From positions 2,250,001-2,282,000 of the forward strand of contig NZ_CP011041.1 in assembly GCF_002310835.1 (NCBI RefSeq): a stretch of 32,000 bases of DNA. The letters are read 5' to 3'. Made by a program: the position numbers and the translations under genes. Within the stretch, counting starts at the first letter, position 1; each line of letters begins with the position of its first letter. The notes beneath the pieces are model-generated. The model saw only the letters and a program-made list of their open reading frames with translations. It searched no databases and was not told where the DNA came from. Below, piece after piece: positions 4,940-17,346 of the stretch. The DNA is from Pseudoalteromonas tetraodonis. GTDB taxonomy: Bacteria > Pseudomonadota > Gammaproteobacteria > Enterobacterales > Alteromonadaceae.

Positions 4940-5285
4940 CGCTTCAGATGATAATACTTCAAACACAAGGCGGTCAACATTAAATTAACTTTAAAAGCAC
5001 TTTGCATGACTTTTCATTATCATTTTTGGCGGTATTTTATTAGTTTTTTAAATTAATTTATGGATACGATTTAGAAACAAACTTGATAATTAGAAACAAC
5101 ATCATGGTAAACAATTGATTTTTATGAGTTTTAATAAATGATTTTTTAAATTACGCTTTGTATTCTTTTTAGATAAAATTGTAACCAAGGCCACAATTGT
5201 TAATTTACCTTTAAATTTTTTATTCACCTTTGAAGTTTATAGGCGAATAATTAACTATAAAAGACTTTTTAAGCTCATAGTTAAG

Positions 5286-7631
5286 CTAAAACAACGAGGC
5301 TTGTGTAGATTCAGATGCTGTGTTTAATGCGCTTAATATCATTTGCGCAACAGGGTCGAGCTGTCTTTGAATGTACAGTGGGTAGTTCAGAGTGTTTTTA
5401 CCGCTATAAAGCTCAGCGCCGGTTACTGCGTAAACATATTCAATCACTTGCCCGCGTTTTATTTCAAACTCAGGATGATTCGCTTTGTATTTTTTAACAG
5501 CTTGAACATGAGGAGGAATATTTTTGATGTAATCGTTAAGGTGCTGCCCTAACCGCTTTCTATATACTAATTTACGGTCGAACTCACCATTATAAAGTTT
5601 TTGAGTGTAGCTATTTATAATATCGTGCAGTTGCTGTATTTCGAAGTTGTCAGTAAATAACGTCTCAAATAATTGTGTTTGAAACTCTTGTGCAAACTCA
5701 GTCCAGTCACTACGTACCGTTTCCATACCTTTAAATACCAGTTTTTTTTCATTATTTTTGGTTACTAGCCCTACATATCGCTTTTTAGAGCCTGTTTTTT
5801 TACCTCGTATAGTTGGCATAAAAAACGGACTGTAATGAGTTTCAAATTCAATTTCTAAATAACTATGTAAATCATAGCGTTGTTTTAAATCAGCTTGCCA
5901 CATGGTATTAATATGATGAACAAGTTGGCAGCCAATTTCGTTGCATTGCTCAGGGCTTTTATCTTCACAAAGTTTTACAAACGTAGAGTCGGTATCACCA
6001 TATATCACCTCAAAGCCTTGCGCTTCTATCCATTTACGGGTTGTTTGCATTATCTCATGGCCACGTAACGTGATAGAACTCGATAAGCGCGGGTCGTAAA
6101 ACCGACAACCCTTAGAGCCGAGTACGCCATATAAACTATTCATAATAATTTTAATCGCTTGTGAGAGCATAGGTTGATTAGTGTCTTTTGCCTCTTGGCG
6201 AGTTTGTGTCAGGTGTGCAATTAATTTGGGTAGATGGTGCTGCGTTCTTGAGAATAACGCCTGATTAAACCCTTCAACCGCTTGCTCTGGTGCATTTAAC
6301 CCTGCGATTAAACCTAGTGGGTCAATACAAAACGTACGCATAATTGAAGGGTATAAGCTTTTAAAATCCAATACCAAAACGTTTTTATACAGCCCTGGAG
6401 TCGACTCCATCACATAGCCACCTGGGCTCTCAAATGAGAGCCCATGATCGCCTAAATTGGGGGCAACATAACCACTGCGGTGTAATAACGGTAAGTATAA
6501 GTTTGTAAATGCGGCAACCGAGCCACCCATGCGTTCCAGTTCGAGCCCTGTTATTTGGGTTCTGACAATGGCAAATTCAAATAGCTTTAATTTTTCGAAA
6601 ATTTGATTAACCAAAATACAATCTTGACGATTATAAGCCGCTAGAGAAAGCTTATCTTCGTTAAATTGACGAACAATTTCAGTTAGTCGGTTGTCGGTTT
6701 TTATTAATTTAGATTCGTTAAGCACACGCTCTGCAACATTGGCTAATGAAAAGCTGTCAAATCGGTAAGTGGCATTTTTTAATGTATCAATGCCATCAAT
6801 GACGCACCGCCCAGGAAGCGTTAATCGGGTGTAATGACCCTTATTAATATATAAAGGTTGATTATCTCGGCCAAAGTTTAGAGTAAGTCCTAACGCCTCT
6901 GCGCGTTCTTGCAATAAACTAAAGTCAAAATCAATAACATTCCAACCAATAATAACATCAGGATCGTTATTTATAATGTACTGCTGCAACTTGGTAAGCA
7001 GGTTAATTTCGTCATAGCACCAGTCTATTTCAAATGTCGAATCACTTTGCTGCGGCTCCCCTATCATCAATACACAATCTAAGCCATTTCCCACAAGTGC
7101 TACACTAAATAACACCCCATCGCCATTACATTCTATATCCAAAGAAATAGATGTAAGCGTTGGCGTGTAATCTTTGTTTGCTTTTAACTTTGCGTCACTA
7201 ATTTCAATAAAGCCATTTTTAGTTGTGGCGTTACCCGTTACCCACACACCTCCTTTAATAAAGCGCTCCATTAAAAAGCGGTCACTGTGGCGTACATCGG
7301 CTTCGTAAATAGGCATTGCTTGCTCTAAAAGAGCGCGTGCAGTATATAAACTTTTTATATCGTTAAAGTAACAGGCAACACATTCGTTGCCACTAAAATG
7401 ACACAACTCAACCTTATTAAACTGCGCTTTTATATTTGCCTGTGCGAGTAAAGTATTTGCAGTATGTTGCGCTGACAATGGGATGAAAAACACTGCCTGC
7501 TGGTTTTCAATAATAACTTTAAGTGGGCCATGATCAGAGCTTAGCCAATAACACAAAGTAATACCTTGCGTATTTTTAGCGCTGTATTGTTGCCTTGATA
7601 AAATAAAGCCCTGATAGATTGCTTGTGTCAA
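5286..7631 (-). CDS. polB: DNA polymerase II (family B polymerase)
   Basis: Collinear similarity to E. coli PolB as I recall it. Motifs include Exo I (SLDIECNG), Exo II (DPDVIIGWNVIDFDF), Pol A (LDFKSLYPSI), Pol C (IYGDTDS) and KKRY. I moved the start to TTG 7631 (MTQAIYQGFILSRQQ aligns with E. coli MAQAGFILTRHW). The track start (GTG 7691 / ATG 7688) adds 20 non-homologous residues and abuts the dinG ATG. Confidence 0.88.
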   Translation of the reverse strand: MTQAIYQGFILSRQQYSAKNTQGITLCYWLSSDHGPLKVIIENQQAVFFIPLSAQHTANTLLAQANIKAQFNKVELCHFSGNECVACYFNDIKSLYTARALLEQAMPIYEADVRHSDRFLMERFIKGGVWVTGNATTKNGFIEISDAKLKANKDYTPTLTSISLDIECNGDGVLFSVALVGNGLDCVLMIGEPQQSDSTFEIDWCYDEINLLTKLQQYIINNDPDVIIGWNVIDFDFSLLQERAEALGLTLNFGRDNQPLYINKGHYTRLTLPGRCVIDGIDTLKNATYRFDSFSLANVAERVLNESKLIKTDNRLTEIVRQFNEDKLSLAAYNRQDCILVNQIFEKLKLFEFAIVRTQITGLELERMGGSVAAFTNLYLPLLHRSGYVAPNLGDHGLSFESPGGYVMESTPGLYKNVLVLDFKSLYPSIMRTFCIDPLGLIAGLNAPEQAVEGFNQALFSRTQHHLPKLIAHLTQTRQEAKDTNQPMLSQAIKIIMNSLYGVLGSKGCRFYDPRLSSSITLRGHEIMQTTRKWIEAQGFEVIYGDTDSTFVKLCEDKSPEQCNEIGCQLVHHINTMWQADLKQRYDLHSYLEIEFETHYSPFFMPTIRGKKTGSKKRYVGLVTKNNEKKLVFKGMETVRSDWTEFAQEFQTQLFETLFTDNFEIQQLHDIINSYTQKLYNGEFDRKLVYRKRLGQHLNDYIKNIPPHVQAVKKYKANHPEFEIKRGQVIEYVYAVTGAELYSGKNTLNYPLYIQRQLDPVAQMILSALNTASESTQASLF

Positions 7632-7654
7632 TGTTCGATCCCACTTAATATATA

Positions 7655-7674
7655 CACTGTAATTATATACATAT
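7655..7674. promoter_or_regulatory. Candidate LexA (SOS) box shared by divergent polB and dinG
   Basis: cACTGTaattatatACATat matches 14/20 to TACTGTATATATATACAGTA. One half-site is perfect (CTGT) and the other is degenerate (ACAT instead of ACAG). It overlaps a minus-strand TATAAT (7667-7662) that could serve as the polB -10. Both genes are SOS-regulated (din) genes in E. coli. Confidence 0.4.
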
Positions 7675-7691
7675 TTTAGGTTAATCATCAC

Positions 7692-9767
7692 ATGCTATCG
7701 AGCTCACTTAAAAAAACAATTAGACAAGTACACCAGCATGTTGCAAATAACCTAACCGATTACCGCCCTCGCAGTAGTCAAAACTATTTAGTTGCTGAAA
7801 TAGCAAAAACATTAGCCGGTGAATACCATAAAAAACAACGTATTTGTGTTATTGAAGCAGGCACAGGCACCGGAAAGTCATTAGCTTACTGCCTAGGCGC
7901 TCTGCCTCTGGCATTAGCACAAAAAAAGAAACTGGTTATTTCTACGGCTACTGTGGCTTTGCAAGAGCAGTTAATCGCTAAAGAACTGCCGTTTTTTAAA
8001 AAGCACTCAGGACTCGATTTTAAATTTGATTTAGTCAAAGGTCGCCAACGTTATATTTGTGCACACAAACTTCATAATGCACTAAACAGCGATAGCCAAA
8101 CTCAAATGGAGTTTATGCCTACCCTTACATCGCCATTAAGCGATATGGAAACTAAGTGCTTAAAGCAACTTTACGATGCCTATATCAATAAAAAATGGCA
8201 AGGTGATAGAGACAGCTGGGCCGATACCATTCCTGATAGAGTATGGGGGCTCATTGCTTGCGATAAGCATGCTTGCCAACGCCAGATGAAAGCACACCAA
8301 ACATGTCCTTTTCAACTCGCCCGCCAGCAGTTAATGCAAATGGATGTATTGGTTATAAACCATTCGTTACTGTTAGCCGATTTAGACTTAGGGGGCGGAA
8401 AAATTTTACCCGAACCCGACAACACCATTTATGTAATCGATGAAGCGCACCACCTTGCACATATTACCCGCGACTTTTCATCTGCTGCAGCTACGATAAA
8501 AGGCACGATAGATTGGCTCGACAAACTTACTAAATTCAGTGGCAAAATGGCCAAAGTGTTAGTGGGTCAAAAAGGCATTGGGCAAAACTTTAAGTTATGC
8601 GATAGCGTTAACGATGCCAACAAAGATTTAAAAGTGGTGCGCGATATACTCGACAACGCCGATTTTGAATATTCAAAAGACGATACCTATCGCTTTGAAC
8701 ATGGTGAAATTCCTAAATCGTTACACGCAAAAGCAAAAGACATTAGCGAAGCCACGCTTGATGCATTACGGTGTTTAAATAAGATGCACGATACCCTCAC
8801 ACAAGATGTAAGCGACGGTGATATTAAACCTTATGTTGCCGACCCCATTCTGGCTGAAAGTGGGCAATACATAAACCGGTTAGAACAACTTAATAAATTA
8901 TGGTTTAGTTACGCTACTAAAGGCGAAGGCACACCGCATGCGCGATGGATAAAACGACTTGAATATAAAAGCCATCATGATCACCTGCTTAGCGACTGCC
9001 CTATTGAAGTCGGTTACTATTTAAAAGATAAGCTATGGAACGAATGTGCTGGAGCCGTGTTATGTTCAGCTACCTTGAGCGCACTCGGTTCATTTGATCA
9101 TTTTGCCTATGAAAGCGGCCTTGCCAAAGAGGAAGGGGTGAAATTTATTAAAGTCCCCTCTCCGTTTGACTACCCAAAACAAGCCACTTTACGCATTCCG
9201 GCCTCAAGTATAGAGCCAACAGATAAAGAGTTTAGCGATCATATTGCTAAAACATTACCCGAGTATCTAAACACTAAAAAAGCCAACTTAGTGTTATTTG
9301 CCTCTTACTGGCAAATGGACCATGTAAGTAAGTTTCTTAGAACAAAAGGATTTAACTTATTAGTACAAGGTGAAATGTCGCGAGAAGCTTTACTCAAATT
9401 ACATACTAAAAATATTGATGAAGGCAAAGGCAGTATTTTATTTGGTACCCAAAGTCTTTCTGAAGGGCTTGATTTACCTGGAAAATATTTAGAAAACCTG
9501 ATTATTACCAAAATTCCGTTTGCGGTGCCCACCTCGCCAATAGAAGAAGCACAAGCGGAGTTTGTGCAAAGTAAAGGGGGGAATCCGTTTTTATCGATAA
9601 CCGTCCCAGACGCAGCAAAGAAATTGGTACAAAGCTGTGGTAGACTGCTGCGCAAAGAAAGTGATGCAGGCACAATAACTATTTTAGATAGACGCCTAGT
9701 CACCAAACGATATGGCAAAGCCATGCTTGACACCTTACCACCTTTTAAAAGACAAATAGATTACTGA
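7692..9767 (+). CDS. dinG: ATP-dependent DNA helicase DinG (XPD-like, Fe-S cluster)
   Basis: 691 aa. The N-terminus aligns with E. coli DinG (..AEIAKTLAGE..). It carries Walker A (EAGTGTGKS), a DEAH box (VIDEAHHL), a four-Cys Fe-S region (YICAHK..ACDKHACQRQMKAHQTCPF) and C-terminal helicase motifs (SLSEGLDLPG, QSCGRLLR). Confidence 0.92.
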   Translation: MLSSSLKKTIRQVHQHVANNLTDYRPRSSQNYLVAEIAKTLAGEYHKKQRICVIEAGTGTGKSLAYCLGALPLALAQKKKLVISTATVALQEQLIAKELPFFKKHSGLDFKFDLVKGRQRYICAHKLHNALNSDSQTQMEFMPTLTSPLSDMETKCLKQLYDAYINKKWQGDRDSWADTIPDRVWGLIACDKHACQRQMKAHQTCPFQLARQQLMQMDVLVINHSLLLADLDLGGGKILPEPDNTIYVIDEAHHLAHITRDFSSAAATIKGTIDWLDKLTKFSGKMAKVLVGQKGIGQNFKLCDSVNDANKDLKVVRDILDNADFEYSKDDTYRFEHGEIPKSLHAKAKDISEATLDALRCLNKMHDTLTQDVSDGDIKPYVADPILAESGQYINRLEQLNKLWFSYATKGEGTPHARWIKRLEYKSHHDHLLSDCPIEVGYYLKDKLWNECAGAVLCSATLSALGSFDHFAYESGLAKEEGVKFIKVPSPFDYPKQATLRIPASSIEPTDKEFSDHIAKTLPEYLNTKKANLVLFASYWQMDHVSKFLRTKGFNLLVQGEMSREALLKLHTKNIDEGKGSILFGTQSLSEGLDLPGKYLENLIITKIPFAVPTSPIEEAQAEFVQSKGGNPFLSITVPDAAKKLVQSCGRLLRKESDAGTITILDRRLVTKRYGKAMLDTLPPFKRQIDY

Positions 9768-10544: not shown

Positions 10545-11153
10545 ATGCAATCTGCTGCTTTAGACAAACTACGCCAACAAGTTGCTACGCTTAAGCAACA
10601 AGCTGAGCAATTTGATAAAGCAAAATTATTTGCTAAAAATCGTTATATGCAGGCACAGCCAAGCTTATTTGACAGAGCCGTATTTAGCACCAAAAGCATG
10701 AACTTGGTTGATTACGTAGTAGAAATAGAAGATGAAATAGCCAGCCTACCACCGAGCGATCACCGCCATGCCTACACTTACGCACTTGAGCGCATTGCTA
10801 GTCAGGTACAAGCGGTCTTTAATGTAATTAAATCGACCCCTATTTGGGTGAAAGAAAACAAAAGTCATTATAAGCCTCGTGCCAAACAGCCTATTTACAA
10901 ACAAGCAGTGCAAAAAATCATGCAATCATCCCATGAGTTATATGATGAGCTTAAACAAAACCATGAGTTTGAACGCCGCCTAGTACTGATGATTGAAGAG
11001 CGTAAGTTACAAATGGAAAAAGCATCACCTGCGCAAACACAAAAACTTAATCAAGAAATTTTAACCACTCATGCACGACTCGGGCGTTGTAGAAAAGCAA
11101 TTTCTGCCACCGAAGACAAAATTCAACAAGTAGAAAAACAACAGTTACGCTAA
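10545..11153 (+). CDS. priC: Primosomal replication restart protein PriC (N'')
   Basis: 202 aa, helical and basic. Segments match E. coli PriC as I recall it: LDKLRQQVATLKQQ vs LEKLEGQLATLRQR, NHEFERRLVLMIEERK vs HQDFERRLREMVAERR, and ARLGRCRKAISATEDKI vs ARLARCRHALEKIENRL. ybaM lies nearby, as I recall it does in E. coli. Confidence 0.7.
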   Translation: MQSAALDKLRQQVATLKQQAEQFDKAKLFAKNRYMQAQPSLFDRAVFSTKSMNLVDYVVEIEDEIASLPPSDHRHAYTYALERIASQVQAVFNVIKSTPIWVKENKSHYKPRAKQPIYKQAVQKIMQSSHELYDELKQNHEFERRLVLMIEERKLQMEKASPAQTQKLNQEILTTHARLGRCRKAISATEDKIQQVEKQQLR

Positions 11154-12510: not shown

Positions 12511-13038
12511 TTATTCTATTGTTTGTATTTCATGAACGGTGACAACACCATCGTGTTTATTACAATCAATTTTAATTTCGCCGAATGTGCGCCTAGGTGA
12601 TGTTGACCTACGGCAGGTCATGTTTTGAGCTTTAACACCAAACTGCTCAATATAAACGGCAACAATTGCATCTATTTCTTGCTTCTCGTGTGTTGTCGCA
12701 GCAGTATAAAAAGTATCATATTGTTGTGACCAATTTTCAACGCCTGCTTCTGCAGCAACACCCAACCACCCCATACCAAGCTTAGTTGATTGCTCTAAAT
12801 ATTGCCCTTTTAAAAACATAAACGCTAGGGTGTATTGTGCACTTTTATAGCCCAATGCAGCGGGCTCTTCTAAATAGTTAAAAGCCTCTTCAAACTCCCC
12901 TTTTCTGTATGCCTTAACACCATTATATTCTTTTTTCTTCATGGTATTATCGCTGTAAAGACTTATTGGTGACGAATTACAGCCAGTTATTAAAGCCATC
13001 AATACCAGCAAAGTGGCACTCAATTGTCGATGATTCAT
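12511..13038 (-). CDS. Sel1-repeat (TPR-like) lipoprotein
   Basis: I trimmed the start to ATG 13038, which has an AAGGA RBS 5 nt upstream. The lipoprotein signal is MNHRQLSATLLVLMALITG|C. Sel1-like repeats are present (GEFEEAFNYLEEPAALGYKSAQYTLAFMFLKGQ..GMGWLGVAAEAG). Confidence 0.7.
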   Translation of the reverse strand: MNHRQLSATLLVLMALITGCNSSPISLYSDNTMKKKEYNGVKAYRKGEFEEAFNYLEEPAALGYKSAQYTLAFMFLKGQYLEQSTKLGMGWLGVAAEAGVENWSQQYDTFYTAATTHEKQEIDAIVAVYIEQFGVKAQNMTCRRSTSPRRTFGEIKIDCNKHDGVVTVHEIQTIE

Positions 13039-13278
13039 TATTATCCTTAATTTATTATTGTTTTTGCCCAGAAACATACACCACTTTTAAAGCATCTGCC
13101 CTAAAACCTGTTAACATAAATTTAATATTATCATGGGATTGCAAAGCTTACAGCGATTATTTTTATAAGCGCAGTTTTAATCGCCCATTAAAAATAGATA
13201 AACCTATTTTTTAATACCCTGTATTTATACATAAGGTACTTTACTTTACGCACAATGCATTTAACTGACGTAAATCTA

Positions 13279-15435
13279 TCACTGACTGTCCGTTTGCTGA
13301 ACCAGTAATAATAACTGCGCGGCCGCTTTGGCATCGTCTAATGCACGGTGATGATTGGTTAAGTCTAAATTAAAGTGTGCCGATAAATTACCGAGTGAGT
13401 ATGACTTTAATCCCTTAAATGCTTTGCGTGATTCAACGACTGTACACAGTTTCGGCATTTTAAAATTAATCCCTATCCTCTCAAGCTCTTTTTTAATAAA
13501 TCCATAATCAAAATTAACATTATGCGCCACAAAAATACTGCCTGATAATTGATTCAGTAACGGCGCTGCAATCTCGCTAAATATGGGCGCATTGCTTACC
13601 ATGGCATCGTTAATGCCTGTAAGCGAGGTAATAAAACGCGGGATGGGACGCTCTGGGTTTATCAATGTGGTCCATGTATCAACTATTTCGCCCTGCTTTA
13701 TTTTAACAATACCAATTTCGGTAATGCGGTTACCGCCTTTGAGGCCTCCTGTAGTTTCAATATCAACTACACTATAAATACGGTTAGGGTCTACATACCA
13801 CTTCACCGCTGCAATATTGACTTTAAAACCACTGTTTTTTAAATTATCGATGCTCACTAGCTGGTTTCTTTTAAGCTTGTCTCCGGGCGCTTTTACCTCT
13901 TCAAAATGAACTGCGCTGTTATCAACAATCATTAAATCGGGGTAACCATCTTTTAATTGTCGATAGTTTTTTGCCATGTTTTTTAAATGGCTTAATAGCG
14001 CATTTATCGGGCTGTTTAAAATAAGCATCTCTAATGGCTTTAATACATCTTTGTGCCATCTAAATAAGCCATTTGGTTGCTCATAATACTTCGCTGCATG
14101 GTGACACACTAAACGCAGCAATTTGGAGGTACTATTACACGCAGCCAGCCGCGCTTCTATTTGTGAGGATTGATTTAAGTAAAAGGAGTCTGTTTTTAAC
14201 GCTTGCGGGAAAATATCAAATTCATTGCAGGGGGGGGTTGGGGTTTCAATAAAAAGTTCCTGCCAAAAAACCAGCGCAAATAAGCTTTGCCACAAGGTAT
14301 TCTCAGTATAAAAAACCTGCTTGCCTTGACGAGTGTAGTGATCACTTACACCTAACTCAACATCGCCACGGTAAAGTTCATCAACTTCTATAATACAGCG
14401 TGTACTGGCTAACATTTCACTAAGCCGTGAGCGTGTTTGCTTGTTAAATTTGCGCATTAAAAAGTCATCCGCAAAGTACAGTAACTCATCGGTGAGCGGA
14501 TTTTCTATAATTTTCTCAAGTTGCGCCTTTACCCATTCTTTATTACCTAAACGGTATTGCTCTCTTATTTGAATTTCTAGTGCGTGCGTATCGTCTTCGC
14601 AGGCATTAAGTACATCAAACGCTAATACAGGGTTAGTTGTTTTTAGTTGCTTATAAAGTATGACCAATAACTTATTCTTTAGCTCTCGAGCTATAACCCC
14701 TACTGCTAATTCATTAATTAATTGTTTTGCTAGCATCTCATTTTCATTGTCATCTTTCGCGTTTTTAACAGCTAACCGAAAACGGTTTAACACATAGTTA
14801 GATTGCGCTTCCTCAATTGAGTCAAAGCGAGACAAACTTTCATTATGCCCTTGCCTAACAGGAGTTACCCCTAAATCTCTTAGTACAAACCGGTTTTGAT
14901 GATTAACATCACCGGCACTGAGCCTGCCAATATACAAAAATTCAAAATACTCGTAATACTCTTCTCTATTATTGATCACGTACTGATTATACAAATGCGA
15001 AAGACGCTCTGGCTTAGATTCAAAAAATGAAATAGCGACTTCAACTAAACAACTTTTAGCAGCACTTTTTTTAAATAATGGTGGCTGCTCTTGTTGAGCT
15101 AACAACTCAATTAAGGCCGGCTTTGTTAGATGACTAAGCAGTTGCTTAGCGTCTGTTTGTGAGGGTTCATATACTAATCCGGCTGTTTTTAAATTAAAAA
15201 GTGACTGATAAGGCGAAATAATCTCTTCATAATTTAATGACTGAGTTTGCACTAAATAAGGCTTACGAGAATAAATTCGTGCTAGCATGCATTGGCTTTG
15301 CTCGTCGAGCGTGTTTATTTTATTAATAAATGTAATGTGCTTTTGCTCAAGTAAATGCATACATTTATCGCTCACAAAGCCTATTAGCTCTTTAAAATGT
15401 GCCAAATAATATTTTGCTGGTAACTCTTTTCTCAT
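13279..15435 (-). CDS. FAN1-like VRR-NUC nuclease fused to a C-terminal DnaQ-type (DEDDh) 3'-5' exonuclease domain
   Basis: The N-terminal region is FAN1-like (..PAKYYLAHFKELIGFV.., then a long helical region). The VRR-NUC PD-(D/E)xK core is GYPDLMIVDNSAVHFEEVKAPGDKLKRNQ. The C-terminal exonuclease motifs are Exo I (VVDIETTGG), Exo II (FVAHNVNFDYGF) and Exo III (HHRALDDA). I chose ATG 15435 as the start. The track's TTG 15447 is the alternative. Confidence 0.8.
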   Translation of the reverse strand: MRKELPAKYYLAHFKELIGFVSDKCMHLLEQKHITFINKINTLDEQSQCMLARIYSRKPYLVQTQSLNYEEIISPYQSLFNLKTAGLVYEPSQTDAKQLLSHLTKPALIELLAQQEQPPLFKKSAAKSCLVEVAISFFESKPERLSHLYNQYVINNREEYYEYFEFLYIGRLSAGDVNHQNRFVLRDLGVTPVRQGHNESLSRFDSIEEAQSNYVLNRFRLAVKNAKDDNENEMLAKQLINELAVGVIARELKNKLLVILYKQLKTTNPVLAFDVLNACEDDTHALEIQIREQYRLGNKEWVKAQLEKIIENPLTDELLYFADDFLMRKFNKQTRSRLSEMLASTRCIIEVDELYRGDVELGVSDHYTRQGKQVFYTENTLWQSLFALVFWQELFIETPTPPCNEFDIFPQALKTDSFYLNQSSQIEARLAACNSTSKLLRLVCHHAAKYYEQPNGLFRWHKDVLKPLEMLILNSPINALLSHLKNMAKNYRQLKDGYPDLMIVDNSAVHFEEVKAPGDKLKRNQLVSIDNLKNSGFKVNIAAVKWYVDPNRIYSVVDIETTGGLKGGNRITEIGIVKIKQGEIVDTWTTLINPERPIPRFITSLTGINDAMVSNAPIFSEIAAPLLNQLSGSIFVAHNVNFDYGFIKKELERIGINFKMPKLCTVVESRKAFKGLKSYSLGNLSAHFNLDLTNHHRALDDAKAAAQLLLLVQQTDSQ
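14230..14237. repeat. G8 homopolymer (C8 on the coding strand) inside the FAN1-like gene
   Basis: Read directly: gca-gggggggg-ttggggttt, encoding ..TPTPPC.. It is the longest G/C homopolymer I saw in this AT-rich window. Confidence 0.9.
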
Positions 15436-15447
15436 AAAAACCGCCAA

Positions 15448-15467
15448 TGCTGTATATAAAAACAGTA
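15448..15467 (-). promoter_or_regulatory. LexA (SOS) box overlapping the promoter of the FAN1-like/exonuclease gene
   Basis: The minus strand reads TACTGTTTTTATATACAGCA. This is a perfect CTGT-N8-ACAG and matches 17/20 to the E. coli consensus TACTGTATATATATACAGTA. It overlaps a sigma70-like promoter, TTGCTA (15491-15486) -16 nt- TATACT (15469-15464). It sits 13 bp upstream of ATG 15435. Confidence 0.75.
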
Positions 15468-15921
15468 TAATTATTTGAGCGCTTTTAGCAACCCAATTAG
15501 GAGTTAATAGCCTTTTAGAATTTAAATTGATTCAATCTCGGGCGCTTTAATTTCAGCGAGGTTTGTTACCTAATAAACTAAGTTAAAACCGAGCACCCTT
15601 TTTATACCCTGCACCTTATCTTCACCTGTGTAGATAGCAGAACCCTTCAAGCAGTGCGTGTTTAACATTAACGAAGCGTTAGTACCTATTTACGGGCATT
15701 CACATGGCAAAAGATCTATTTTGCTTAAAAACCAAACACACTGCTGAAACTTCAATCTCAAAAGATAAACAGACCCTCGCACAACTCAATTAATTTATTT
15801 ATGCATACGTATTACTATTGAAATATCTTTTTTAGCGTGATTACTCTGTGCTAAGGTTGCCCGCAAATTATTAGTGGTACTTTAACTTCATTACACATAA
15901 TAAAAATTAGGATTGAACAAC

Positions 15922-17346
15922 ATGACAACACAGCATGCAACTAAAGGTGAGCAAAGCGCAGCGGCAAAGTGCTCACTTTTATACGTTATTTTTATATCGG
16001 CTGTTGCCGCCATTGGTGGCTTTTTATTTGGTTTTGATTCAGGCGTTATAAACGGCACTGTATCGGCATTAGGTAATACATTTAACTCAAGCAGTGTAGC
16101 AACAGGGTTTAATGTTGCCTCTGTTTTACTTGGTTGTGCGCTGGGTGCTTTAGCTGCTGGCCCATTAGCTGACAAATTTGGCCGTCGCGCTATTATGATT
16201 GTCACTGCACTTATATTTGCTATCAGTGCATTTGGCTCTGGTATTGCTGATAGCTCAGCTGAGTTTATTTTTTACCGCTTATTTGGTGGATTAGGTATAG
16301 GTGCGGCATCTGTTTTAGCGCCGGCTTATATTGCAGAAGTAGCACCTGCCAGCTTACGCGGCCGTTTAGCAACACTGCAGCAGCTTGCTATTGTGCTGGG
16401 TCTGTTTGCTGCCTTTTTAAGTAACTACCTAATTGCTAATGCCGCAGGCGGTGCCGAGGGTATTTTACTGTTAGACTTAGCTGCATGGCGCTGGATGTTT
16501 TGGGCTGAACTGGTTCCTGCAGGCTTATTTTTGATTGGCGTACTTTTTATTCCTGAGTCACCGCGTTACTTAGTCGCACAAGGCAAGCTTAAACACGCTA
16601 AAACTGTATTTAATAAAATCTCAAATGACGATGCTGATACACAAATCAGTGACGTAAAGCAGTCTCTGAAAAGTGATAAAAAACCAAGTATTCGCGACTT
16701 ATATATTGATGGCAGTAAAAAAGTACACCCTATTGTTTGGGTGGGTGTGGCCTTGTCAGTGTTTCAACAATTTGTTGGTATTAACGTGGTATTTTATTAC
16801 GGTTCAGAACTTTGGCAAGCCGCTGGTTTTGATGAATCACAATCACTGTTTATAAACGTGCTTGCGGGTACCACTAATATTTTGTCTACTTTTATTGCCA
16901 TTGCTTTAGTTGATAAAGTGGGACGTAAGCCATTGTTACTGGTAGGTAGTATAGGTATGTTTATTAGTTTAAGTGCACTTACCTACACCTTTGGCAGTGC
17001 AGGCCTTGATGAAGCGGGCAAGTTAGCACTTAGTGAAAATATGGGTACCTTTGCTTTAATAATGGCTAACCTGTTTGTGGTATTTTTTGGTTTAAGCTGG
17101 GGCCCAATTGTGTGGGTACTGCTTGGCGAAATGTTTAATAACCGCATCCGTGGTGCAGCGCTTGCAGTTGCTGCTAGTGCGCAGTGGATAGCTAACTTTG
17201 CTATTACTATGACCTTCCCTATCATGCTAGGTAGTATTGGTTTAGCAGGCGCCTATGGTTTTTACACTCTCTCAGCGTTTATTAGTGTGTTCTTTGTGGT
17301 CAAATACATTAAAGAAACACGCGGCATGAAATTAGAGTCAATGTAA
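15922..17346 (+). CDS. MFS sugar porter family transporter (XylE/GalP-like sugar:H+ symporter)
   Basis: 12-TM MFS protein with sugar-porter signatures (DKFGRR, PESPRYLV, VDKVGRKPLL, GPIVWVLLGEMF, IKETRGMKLE). I trimmed the start to ATG 15922, which has an AGGA 9 nt upstream. The track start is TTG 15913. Confidence 0.9.
   Translation: MTTQHATKGEQSAAAKCSLLYVIFISAVAAIGGFLFGFDSGVINGTVSALGNTFNSSSVATGFNVASVLLGCALGALAAGPLADKFGRRAIMIVTALIFAISAFGSGIADSSAEFIFYRLFGGLGIGAASVLAPAYIAEVAPASLRGRLATLQQLAIVLGLFAAFLSNYLIANAAGGAEGILLLDLAAWRWMFWAELVPAGLFLIGVLFIPESPRYLVAQGKLKHAKTVFNKISNDDADTQISDVKQSLKSDKKPSIRDLYIDGSKKVHPIVWVGVALSVFQQFVGINVVFYYGSELWQAAGFDESQSLFINVLAGTTNILSTFIAIALVDKVGRKPLLLVGSIGMFISLSALTYTFGSAGLDEAGKLALSENMGTFALIMANLFVVFFGLSWGPIVWVLLGEMFNNRIRGAALAVAASAQWIANFAITMTFPIMLGSIGLAGAYGFYTLSAFISVFFVVKYIKETRGMKLESM

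Follow-up and report, generated by a model that had tools for sequence, protein, structure and literature searches.

The window analysed here, a stretch of 32,000 nucleotides from Pseudoalteromonas tetraodonis (assembly GCF_002310835.1, contig NZ_CP011041.1, positions 2,250,001 to 2,282,000), carries on its minus strand a gene in which a FAN1-type nuclease is fused to a DEDDh 3'-5' exonuclease and which is preceded by a predicted LexA operator (SOS box). The coding sequence of the fusion is located at 13279..15435 and encodes 718 amino acids (aa), with the ATG at 15435 and the stop codon included. In the list of open reading frames (ORFs) the entry for this gene begins further upstream with a TTG (minus strand, 13279-15447, 722 aa); however, the ATG at 15435 is the preferred start and the in-frame TTG at 15447 is unlikely, because the homologues begin at the equivalent of the ATG, i.e. 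with M(R/K)K-LP-KYY, where the 718-aa product opens with MRKELPAKYY. The protein matches three Pfam domains (FAN1_HTH, VRR_NUC and RNase_T), each above its gathering score. An earlier note, which was made from the sequence of the window alone, had described a single ORF of about 718 aa that joins a FAN1-like module with a VRR-NUC PD-(D/E)xK core to a complete DEDDh 3'-5' exonuclease, and both modules are indeed present as described. The range it gave (13279-15491) is correct, the strand, which it did not name, is the minus strand, and the motifs it quoted were all recovered (KYYLAHF, GYPDLMIV...HFEEVKAPGDKLKRNQ, VVDIETTGG, FVAHNVNFDYGF and HHRALDDA). The checks by profile hidden Markov models and by structure prediction that it had suggested gave significant matches to all three domains and a model that resembles PaFAN1, the FAN1 of Pseudomonas aeruginosa, plus DEDDh exonucleases.

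Residues 1-550 are a complete FAN1 of the PaFAN1 type, composed of an N-terminal domain (NTD), a SAP/TPR body and a VRR-NUC core. The DNA-binding NTD (HTH/NTD domain, residues 13-92, 15160..15399, minus strand) matches PF21315 (E 2e-14, 53.5 bits vs a cut-off of 27) and aligns without gaps to residues 20-126 of the PaFAN1 structure 4r89, with R53 and R57 at the positions of R65 and R69 in PaFAN1. Both arginines are conserved at 90% or more in 77 diverse fusion homologues, over which the conservation of all functional residues was computed, and the PaFAN1 double mutant R65A/R69A is among the mutants with reduced nuclease activity (PMC4201288). The SAP-like and TPR-like region that follows (approximately residues 93-345, 14401..15159, minus strand) is all-helical in the structure model and is covered both by the profile alignment to PaFAN1 and by the Foldseek match given below. 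The VRR-NUC domain, which contains a helical insertion of the FAN1 type, comprises approximately residues 346-550 (13786..14400, minus strand; PF08774, E 1.6e-12), and its Pfam core is located at residues 472-550 (47.9 bits vs a cut-off of 23.8). Its PD-(D/E)xK residues D500, E513 and K515 as well as Q525 are invariant in the 77 sequences, and GYPDL and EVK of the fusion align onto GLPDL and EVK of human FAN1. The counterparts of these residues in PaFAN1 are D507, E522 and K524 (numbering of PMC9635880) and Q534, for which a mutant has been described (PMC4201288). A profile of the 77 fusions aligned to PaFAN1 (4r89) over residues 18-558 in one stretch (E 3.7e-72), and in a Foldseek search with the model the first 23 matches were without exception structures of FAN1, the best being that of PaFAN1 in complex with 5'-flap DNA (5y7q_A; E 2e-22, target-normalised TM-score 0.78, 574 columns).

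The second module is a DEDDh (DnaQ/RNase T-type) 3'-5' exonuclease domain at approximately residues 553-713 (13297..13779, minus strand). PF00929 (RNase_T) matches residues 560-713 (E 8e-34, 118 bits), and the five catalytic residues D558, E560, D643, H696 and D701, which form Exo I (DxE), Exo II (D) and Exo III (H-x4-D), do not vary in the 77 sequences, i.e. the PD-(D/E)xK and the DEDDh sets are both invariant across the homologues. The best Foldseek match of the domain is the exonuclease domain of Staphylococcus aureus DinG (root-mean-square deviation (rmsd) 1.4 Å, 36% identity), followed by the PolC exonuclease and DnaQ, and the rmsd to structures of the DinG exonuclease domain and DnaQ ranges from 1.3 to 2.3 Å. 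Its nearest relatives in sequence are the DEDDh exonucleases of Bacteroidota DEDDh+GIY-YIG proteins of about 460 aa (55-57% identity); Pfam detects the GIY-YIG domain in these relatives (P0257, P0259, P0261, P0264) and not in the fusion protein. A further protein, P0232 (1045 aa), carries three RNase_T domains in tandem, with GIY-YIG and a UVR motif behind them.

The NCBIfam models agree with this assignment as far as the domain is concerned. Two more specific identities were considered for this domain and rejected. TIGR01407, the family of DnaQ-exonuclease/DinG-helicase fusions, matches residues 558-718 (E 2e-53), but only with positions 2-163 of its 889 and with 181.9 bits vs a cut-off of 547.7, and a Pfam scan found no helicase domain in the protein. 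All equivalogs of the DNA polymerase III epsilon subunit (dnaQ) likewise scored below their cut-offs (TIGR01406 dnaQ_proteo, 80.7 bits vs 222.7), and the protein also lacks a C-terminal tail of the epsilon type, as only about five residues separate the end of the exonuclease from the stop codon. As the full-length equivalogs remain far below cut-off, the annotation "DNA polymerase III subunit epsilon" is unsupported. This is one of several names under which the fusion protein appears in the source databases, the others being "DNA-directed DNA polymerase", "phosphodiesterase I", "VRR-NUC domain-containing protein" and "exonuclease domain-containing protein".

The AlphaFold2 model of the fusion, built on the 77-sequence alignment, has a mean predicted local distance difference test (pLDDT) of 93.9 and a predicted TM-score (pTM) of 0.85. 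In this model the linker between FAN1 and the exonuclease is only about five residues long (VRR-NUC strand 538-547, then DEDDh strand 553-561), from which the two modules are predicted to be rigidly and tightly joined.

The fusion protein is 97% identical to unclassified Pseudoalteromonas entries and 90% identical to those of P. undina and strain DL-6. The 120 close homologues listed are all 717-742 aa long, and each contains all three Pfam domains. A filter-only HMMER scan over 1.8 billion cluster representatives revealed about 100 clusters (at 50% identity) of 700-770 aa that align over the whole query with 30-56% identity. According to loci and source names, the carriers include Gammaproteobacteria (Pseudoalteromonas, Paraglaciecola, Woeseiaceae, Chromatiaceae, Allohahella), Alphaproteobacteria (Hellea, Neomegalonema, Bradyrhizobium oligotrophicum), Bdellovibrio/Bacteriovoracaceae, Verrucomicrobiia/Puniceicoccus and Planctomycetota, and all sampled Pseudoalteromonas genomes have the gene in a chromosomal setting. 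Whether related genomes carry one gene or two, a check named in the earlier note, was thus answered by one continuous ORF in the 120 listed homologues and the approximately 100 divergent clusters as well as in about 30 genome loci. Judging from these sequences, we conclude that the architecture of the fusion is established and ancient and not a product of assembly.

A neighbour-joining tree of the FAN1 parts is star-like, and the stand-alone proteins of the Pseudomonas type are the only ones that form a clade of their own; short "stand-alone" FAN1 sequences on small contigs that are nested among the fusions in this tree are probably fragments. Shorter architectures were also encountered, consisting either of the VRR_NUC core and RNase_T (240-320 aa) or of FAN1_HTH and RNase_T without VRR-NUC (353-379 aa); these proteins (P0230, P0234, P0237, P0241, P0244) may in part be fragments. 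At the other extreme, P0227 (1292 aa) has a very long insert between FAN1_HTH and VRR-NUC/RNase_T. The curated NCBIfam model PRK08517 ("3'-5' exonuclease", 270 residues) matches residues 480-713 of the fusion and thereby spans the junction of VRR-NUC and exonuclease.

The predicted LexA operator TACTGTTTTTATATACAGCA is located at 15448..15467 on the minus strand, 12 nt upstream of the ATG, and reads TGCTGTATATAAAAACAGTA on the plus strand; the upstream region on the minus strand is thus arranged as TTGCTA-(16 nt)-TATACTGTTTTTATATACAGCA-(12 nt)-ATG. As the earlier note had stated, it is a perfect CTGT-N8-ACAG palindrome that agrees with the Escherichia coli LexA consensus TACTGTATATATATACAGTA at 17 of 20 positions, i.e. 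with exactly three mismatches. The scan gave it as the sole match with three or fewer mismatches in the 32 kb (0.00 expected, none in 100 shuffles). The box also shares 19/20 bases with the operator of umuDC in E. coli K-12 (TACTGTATATAAAAACAGTA, NC_000913.3), which occupies a similar spot just upstream of its start codon; unlike the umuDC operator, it would control a nuclease gene that is absent from E. coli. The putative sigma-70 promoter that the note had placed across the box was listed by the promoter scan at 15491-15464 as well (15464..15491, minus strand; -35 TTGCTA at 15486-15491, 16-nt spacer, -10 TATACT at 15464-15469), and the last four bases of its -10 hexamer are part of the LexA box. 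With 9/12 consensus positions it is a match of common quality in this AT-rich region (16 found, 11 expected).

The conservation of the box in relatives was analysed in an alignment of the 135 nt that precede six Pseudoalteromonas genes, the protein products of which share 40-97% identity. ATACTGT-T--A-A-ACAG, which combines the box with the last bases of the -10 hexamer, is the only block without variation in this footprint, and the other Pseudoalteromonas loci retain an (A/T/G)ATACT hexamer joined to the left arm. The box that the earlier note had described in a single genome is retained in these Pseudoalteromonas species. We considered the divergent sugar-transporter gene (15913-17346) as an alternative target of the box and rejected it, because the box is about 445 bp from its start vs 12 bp from the ATG of the fusion gene and because the box accompanies the fusion gene into loci with other neighbours.

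Beyond the genus, the survey that the earlier note had called for revealed that other phyla show the motif of their own lineage and that control would be patchy. CTGT-N8-ACAG is present upstream of the fusion gene in loci L001, L002, L003, L006, L008, L081 (Woeseiaceae) and L092 (low-GC metagenome), with one-mismatch versions in L005, L093 and L097. GTTC-N7-GTTC on either strand, which we take to be the alphaproteobacterial LexA motif, precedes the gene in L007 and L010 (both Hellea), L012 (Neomegalonema), L023 (Bradyrhizobium), L026 and L098; L026 is binned as Patescibacteria, yet its box is of the alphaproteobacterial type. TGTTC-N4-GAACA, which we likewise assume to be the LexA motif of Verrucomicrobia, is located upstream in L031 (Verrucomicrobiia) and in L084, a locus without assigned taxonomy. 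That LexA motifs diverge between clades is known in general from a study of the SOS response in multi-chromosome bacteria, the coverage of which does not extend to Pseudoalteromonas (PMC3323433). At each boxed locus (about 5-8 kb) the upstream motif is the sole copy of the motif class of that locus. When exact boxes of the three classes were counted in 44 full-length loci (windows from -160 to +5), 17 hits were obtained in 7,085 bp of upstream windows, with 0.14 expected, vs 6 in 297,224 bp elsewhere. The corresponding nominal binomial P of about 1e-29 assumes independent loci, which the loci are not, and is therefore overstated; we regard it as a stronger argument than the P value that three motif types unrelated to one another recur at this position.

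Several observations in the survey concern individual groups of loci. The published Bdellovibrio-type motif TTAC-N3-GTAA has no match upstream of the Bdellovibrionota loci. Directly before the fusion gene of two low-GC loci, L011 from a Bdellovibrio metagenome-assembled genome (MAG; L011:2940-3000) and L085 (1420-1470), there is a direct repeat ATGTAA-N5-ATGTAA, which has a period of 11 bp as in the alphaproteobacterial GTTC-N7-GTTC box and may be an uncharacterised operator. Locus L015, from a gammaproteobacterial MAG without an upstream box, contains a perfect CTGTTTAAATACACAG (5236-5251) 55 bp downstream of the fusion stop codon, which presumably serves a neighbouring gene. No LexA box was found before the stand-alone FAN1 genes in L087 and L088, two loci being too few for a conclusion. 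At six loci (L014, L016, L027, L028, L096, L102), of which four are binned as Woeseiaceae and two are unclassified metagenome contigs, approximately 45 nt of "upstream" sequence before the tblastn match encode an N-terminal extension that is conserved (VTYDQTHW-PVQRR). The gene must therefore begin further upstream than the aligned start, and the scan covered the actual promoters of these six loci only in part.

Within 10 kb of the fusion gene there are three genes of repair and replication restart, namely polB, dinG and priC (10545-11153). polB (DNA polymerase II, minus strand) and a canonical, separate dinG (7692-9767, plus strand) diverge from a very short spacer (both within 5286-9767). 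The two are SOS genes in E. coli. The spacer contains CACTGTAATTATATACATAT (7655-7674), a CTGT-N8-ACAT site with 14/20 agreement to the LexA consensus, which may be a weak shared SOS operator. On the same strand as the fusion gene and 200 bp downstream of it, an ORF of 188 aa (12511-13077, minus strand) encodes a protein with a signal- or lipoprotein-like N-terminus. Conservation of this ORF is limited to L001, the closest relative; its product has no Pfam or NCBIfam match, and no terminator-like site was found between this ORF and the fusion gene on the minus strand. An all-against-all BLAST of the ORFs of 32 loci yielded apparent clusters of conserved neighbours, which we rejected since they are antisense ORFs within the fusion gene. 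At individual loci, recA is located directly after the fusion gene in convergent orientation (L084:3748-4947), and in a planctomycetotal locus (L083, 585-1475) the fusion gene starts 25 bp after dprA and is without a LexA-type motif, which suggests co-transcription with a recombination gene.

Among the known systems, PaFAN1 (P. aeruginosa PA1865; PDB 4R89, 4R8A, 5Y7G, 5Y7Q) is the closest to the first module: it has the same four-part body of NTD, SAP, TPR and VRR-NUC and shares the catalytic D/E/K/Q residues and the NTD arginine pair, although the sequence identity to the fusion is only about 21% in the Foldseek alignment. The earlier note had described it as a stand-alone nuclease, and PaFAN1 indeed ends at residue 559 directly after the VRR-NUC domain, whereas the fusion adds a DEDDh exonuclease of 165 residues. 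The two also differ in regulation, as PA1865 is reported to be induced by UV-C and ciprofloxacin but to be outside the LexA, PrtR and AlpR regulons, the three known damage regulons of P. aeruginosa (PMC12796719), while the fusion gene is preceded by a near-consensus LexA box. Human FAN1 (PDB 4RI8, 4REA, 9EOA) has a homologous SAP/TPR/VRR-NUC core and catalytic motif; the fusion lacks its UBZ domain, its PCNA/MLH1 motifs and FANCD2-type recruitment and has in turn the extra 3'-5' exonuclease and predicted transcriptional control by LexA. The Bacteroidota DEDDh+GIY-YIG proteins (COG0847) resemble the fusion in joining an SOS-linked endonuclease to a 3'-5' exonuclease, an architecture for which SOS regulation has been predicted in Bacteroidetes (PMC8565304), but the partner is GIY-YIG, the order is reversed with the exonuclease N-terminal, and the LexA motifs differ. 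In Firmicute DinG (S. aureus, PDB 8ZEF) and PolC (2P1J), which provide the best matches to the C-terminal domain, the exonuclease is joined to a helicase or a polymerase, in contrast to the helicase-free fusion. In Gammaproteobacteria, VRR-NUC has further been described as a gene neighbour of a DEAD_2 helicase (PMC3424549). Three kinds of modules are linked pairwise across lineages (FAN1-exonuclease, DinG-exonuclease in Firmicutes, VRR-NUC/DEAD_2 helicase), which lends indirect support to the mechanism proposed below.

Taken together, we consider it likely that the gene encodes a bifunctional DNA-repair nuclease that is repressed by LexA until DNA damage occurs, and the fusion looks like a widespread, unstudied damage-induced repair enzyme. 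In undamaged cells, a LexA dimer on 15448-15467 would occlude the -10 region and the start site and thereby block RNA polymerase, and self-cleavage of LexA stimulated by RecA would derepress the gene. A box so near the consensus and so similar to the umuDC operator, from which it differs at one base, may lead to tight, late induction. The FAN1 module would then recognise a nick, a gap or a 5' flap at a stalled fork or crosslink and cut the strand with the 5' flap at a site a few nucleotides inside the duplex. Its model in this is PaFAN1, for which incision has been reported 4-5 bp past the branch point (PMC4103454) or at the third to fifth nucleotide (PMC9635880). From there it would proceed in 5'-3' direction and might be able to pass a crosslink (unhooking), while the attached DEDDh module would trim the opposing 3'-OH end, be it a 3' flap, the end of a nascent strand or a mispaired terminus. 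In this way, a double-flap or crosslinked junction could be converted by a single polypeptide to a clean gap, on which repair synthesis or the loading of RecA could follow. Crystal structures of human FAN1 on double-flap DNA that includes a 3' flap (entries 4ri8, 8s5a) make it plausible by analogy that the 3' strand is reachable by a C-terminal exonuclease.

The most serious alternative keeps the architecture and the SOS control and assigns the enzyme to general flap and gap processing at stalled forks instead of crosslink unhooking, for instance to the removal of 5' flaps displaced by SOS polymerases (the Pol II gene is 6 kb away) and the trimming of 3' ends before restart. The preference of PaFAN1 for generic 5' flaps (PMC4103454, PMC9635880), the presence of polB, dinG and priC in the same 10 kb and the fact that the inducers of PA1865, UV-C and ciprofloxacin, are not crosslinkers (PMC12796719) all fit such a role, but these neighbours are not conserved beyond close relatives and the PaFAN1 structures have been interpreted in terms of crosslink unhooking (Jin 2018, as cited in PMC12796719). 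We regard it as a rather unlikely explanation; the present data do not separate stalled-fork processing from crosslink repair.

It is considerably less probable that the DEDDh domain acts in trans as a proofreader for damage-induced polymerases that lack one (DinB/ImuC type), with FAN1 serving mainly to target DNA structures. The epsilon-subunit annotations, the proximity of the domain to the PolC and DinG exonucleases and the short FAN1_HTH+RNase_T proteins without a nuclease core would agree with this, but the protein scores far under the cut-off of the dnaQ equivalog and no polymerase gene is a conserved neighbour. Moreover, none of the 77 fusions deviates at the PD-(D/E)xK residues, and the endonuclease is therefore under selection.

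We hold it to be quite improbable that the CTGT-N8-ACAG palindrome arose by chance in an AT-rich spacer or is vestigial, with the gene being expressed constitutively. While the promoter call is weak and many orthologues are without a box, no match is expected by chance at this stringency, the box is the only invariant upstream block even among proteins as little as 40% identical, it differs at a single position from a proven E. coli operator, and other phyla carry different LexA motif types at the same place.

Still less credible is an origin of the fusion in an anti-phage defence system or a mobile element instead of host repair. VRR-NUC and DEDDh domains are known in phages and CRISPR systems, and the PADLOC candidate PDC-S48, a Cas-associated DEDDh model and PHROG polymerase-exonuclease families match the protein, but we reject this origin because these PADLOC and PHROG models match the exonuclease domain alone (residues ~550-715). 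Membership in PDC-S48 was dismissed because the match is confined to the exonuclease domain, with profile positions 4-166 of 411, and because the neighbours are housekeeping genes. There are no adjacent defence or phage genes, the gene is chromosomal in all Pseudoalteromonas genomes sampled, and LexA control and the polB/dinG surroundings fit repair. Finally, we give next to no weight to an assembly or frameshift artefact that merges two genes, since, although two MAG loci (L027 and L029), and only these, show the region as two ORFs, one ORF of 700-770 aa is found in hundreds of independent assemblies and the junction is confidently modelled.

Against the proposed LexA-repressed, bifunctional repair nuclease weigh, apart from the overstated P value, the following points. 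LexA binding, induction and both nuclease activities of the fusion and its homologues are predictions, the promoter is a predicted one identified by its consensus match, and the cooperation of the two modules on one substrate is suggested by the fusion alone. The definitions of the alphaproteobacterial and Verrucomicrobia motifs are taken from the Erill/Barbé literature. Approximately 27 of the 44 loci (about 60%), including those of P. rubra, most Woeseiaceae and Puniceicoccus and the Planctomycetota locus, have no exact box of the three classes, and SOS control is therefore expected to be frequent rather than universal. Lastly, the BLAST comparison of the 32 loci gave no conserved gene neighbour that would point to a pathway. 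A broader proposal is put forward only tentatively, and we rate it as somewhat more probably wrong than right: the fusion would be a widespread SOS-inducible, UvrABC-independent nuclease that handles, in one polypeptide, both the 5' and the 3' sides of a crosslinked or stalled-fork junction and that has been kept or recruited under LexA by lineages with three unrelated motifs.

Human FAN1 is intensively studied as a modifier of Huntington's disease and for its part in crosslink repair and karyomegalic nephritis, whereas for bacteria PaFAN1 has been used as a structural model. Full-text searches yielded neither a described FAN1-exonuclease fusion nor a bacterial FAN1 reported to be under LexA, no paper connecting VRR-NUC or FAN1 to LexA, and no Pseudoalteromonas expression or LexA-binding data, in line with the earlier note, which was not aware of a LexA-regulated fusion of this kind. 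The nearest published statement, and the only in-vivo hint we found for a bacterial FAN1, is the damage induction of PA1865 (PMC12796719). The fusion proteins are already in the databases under generic names; what is new is the recognition of a FAN1 extended by an exonuclease and preceded by a conserved SOS operator.

The finding does not establish a new principle, but it provides a well-supported and directly testable way into the role of bacterial FAN1. A practical consequence concerns the many entries named "DNA polymerase III subunit epsilon", although the fusion fails the cut-offs of that family. The family places a FAN1 orthologue in the best-understood bacterial damage regulon, the fused 3'-5' exonuclease is a "Rosetta-stone" partner that suggests which DNA end FAN1 leaves unprocessed, and the fusion occurs in culturable, genetically tractable Pseudoalteromonas; the function of bacterial FAN1 and nuclease-based crosslink unhooking are therefore directly testable. 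Should the tentative broader proposal hold, the fusion, the DEDDh-GIY-YIG proteins of Bacteroidota and the DinG-DEDDh proteins of Firmicutes would jointly indicate that bacterial damage-response endonucleases and helicases are generally paired with one 3'-5' exonuclease module.

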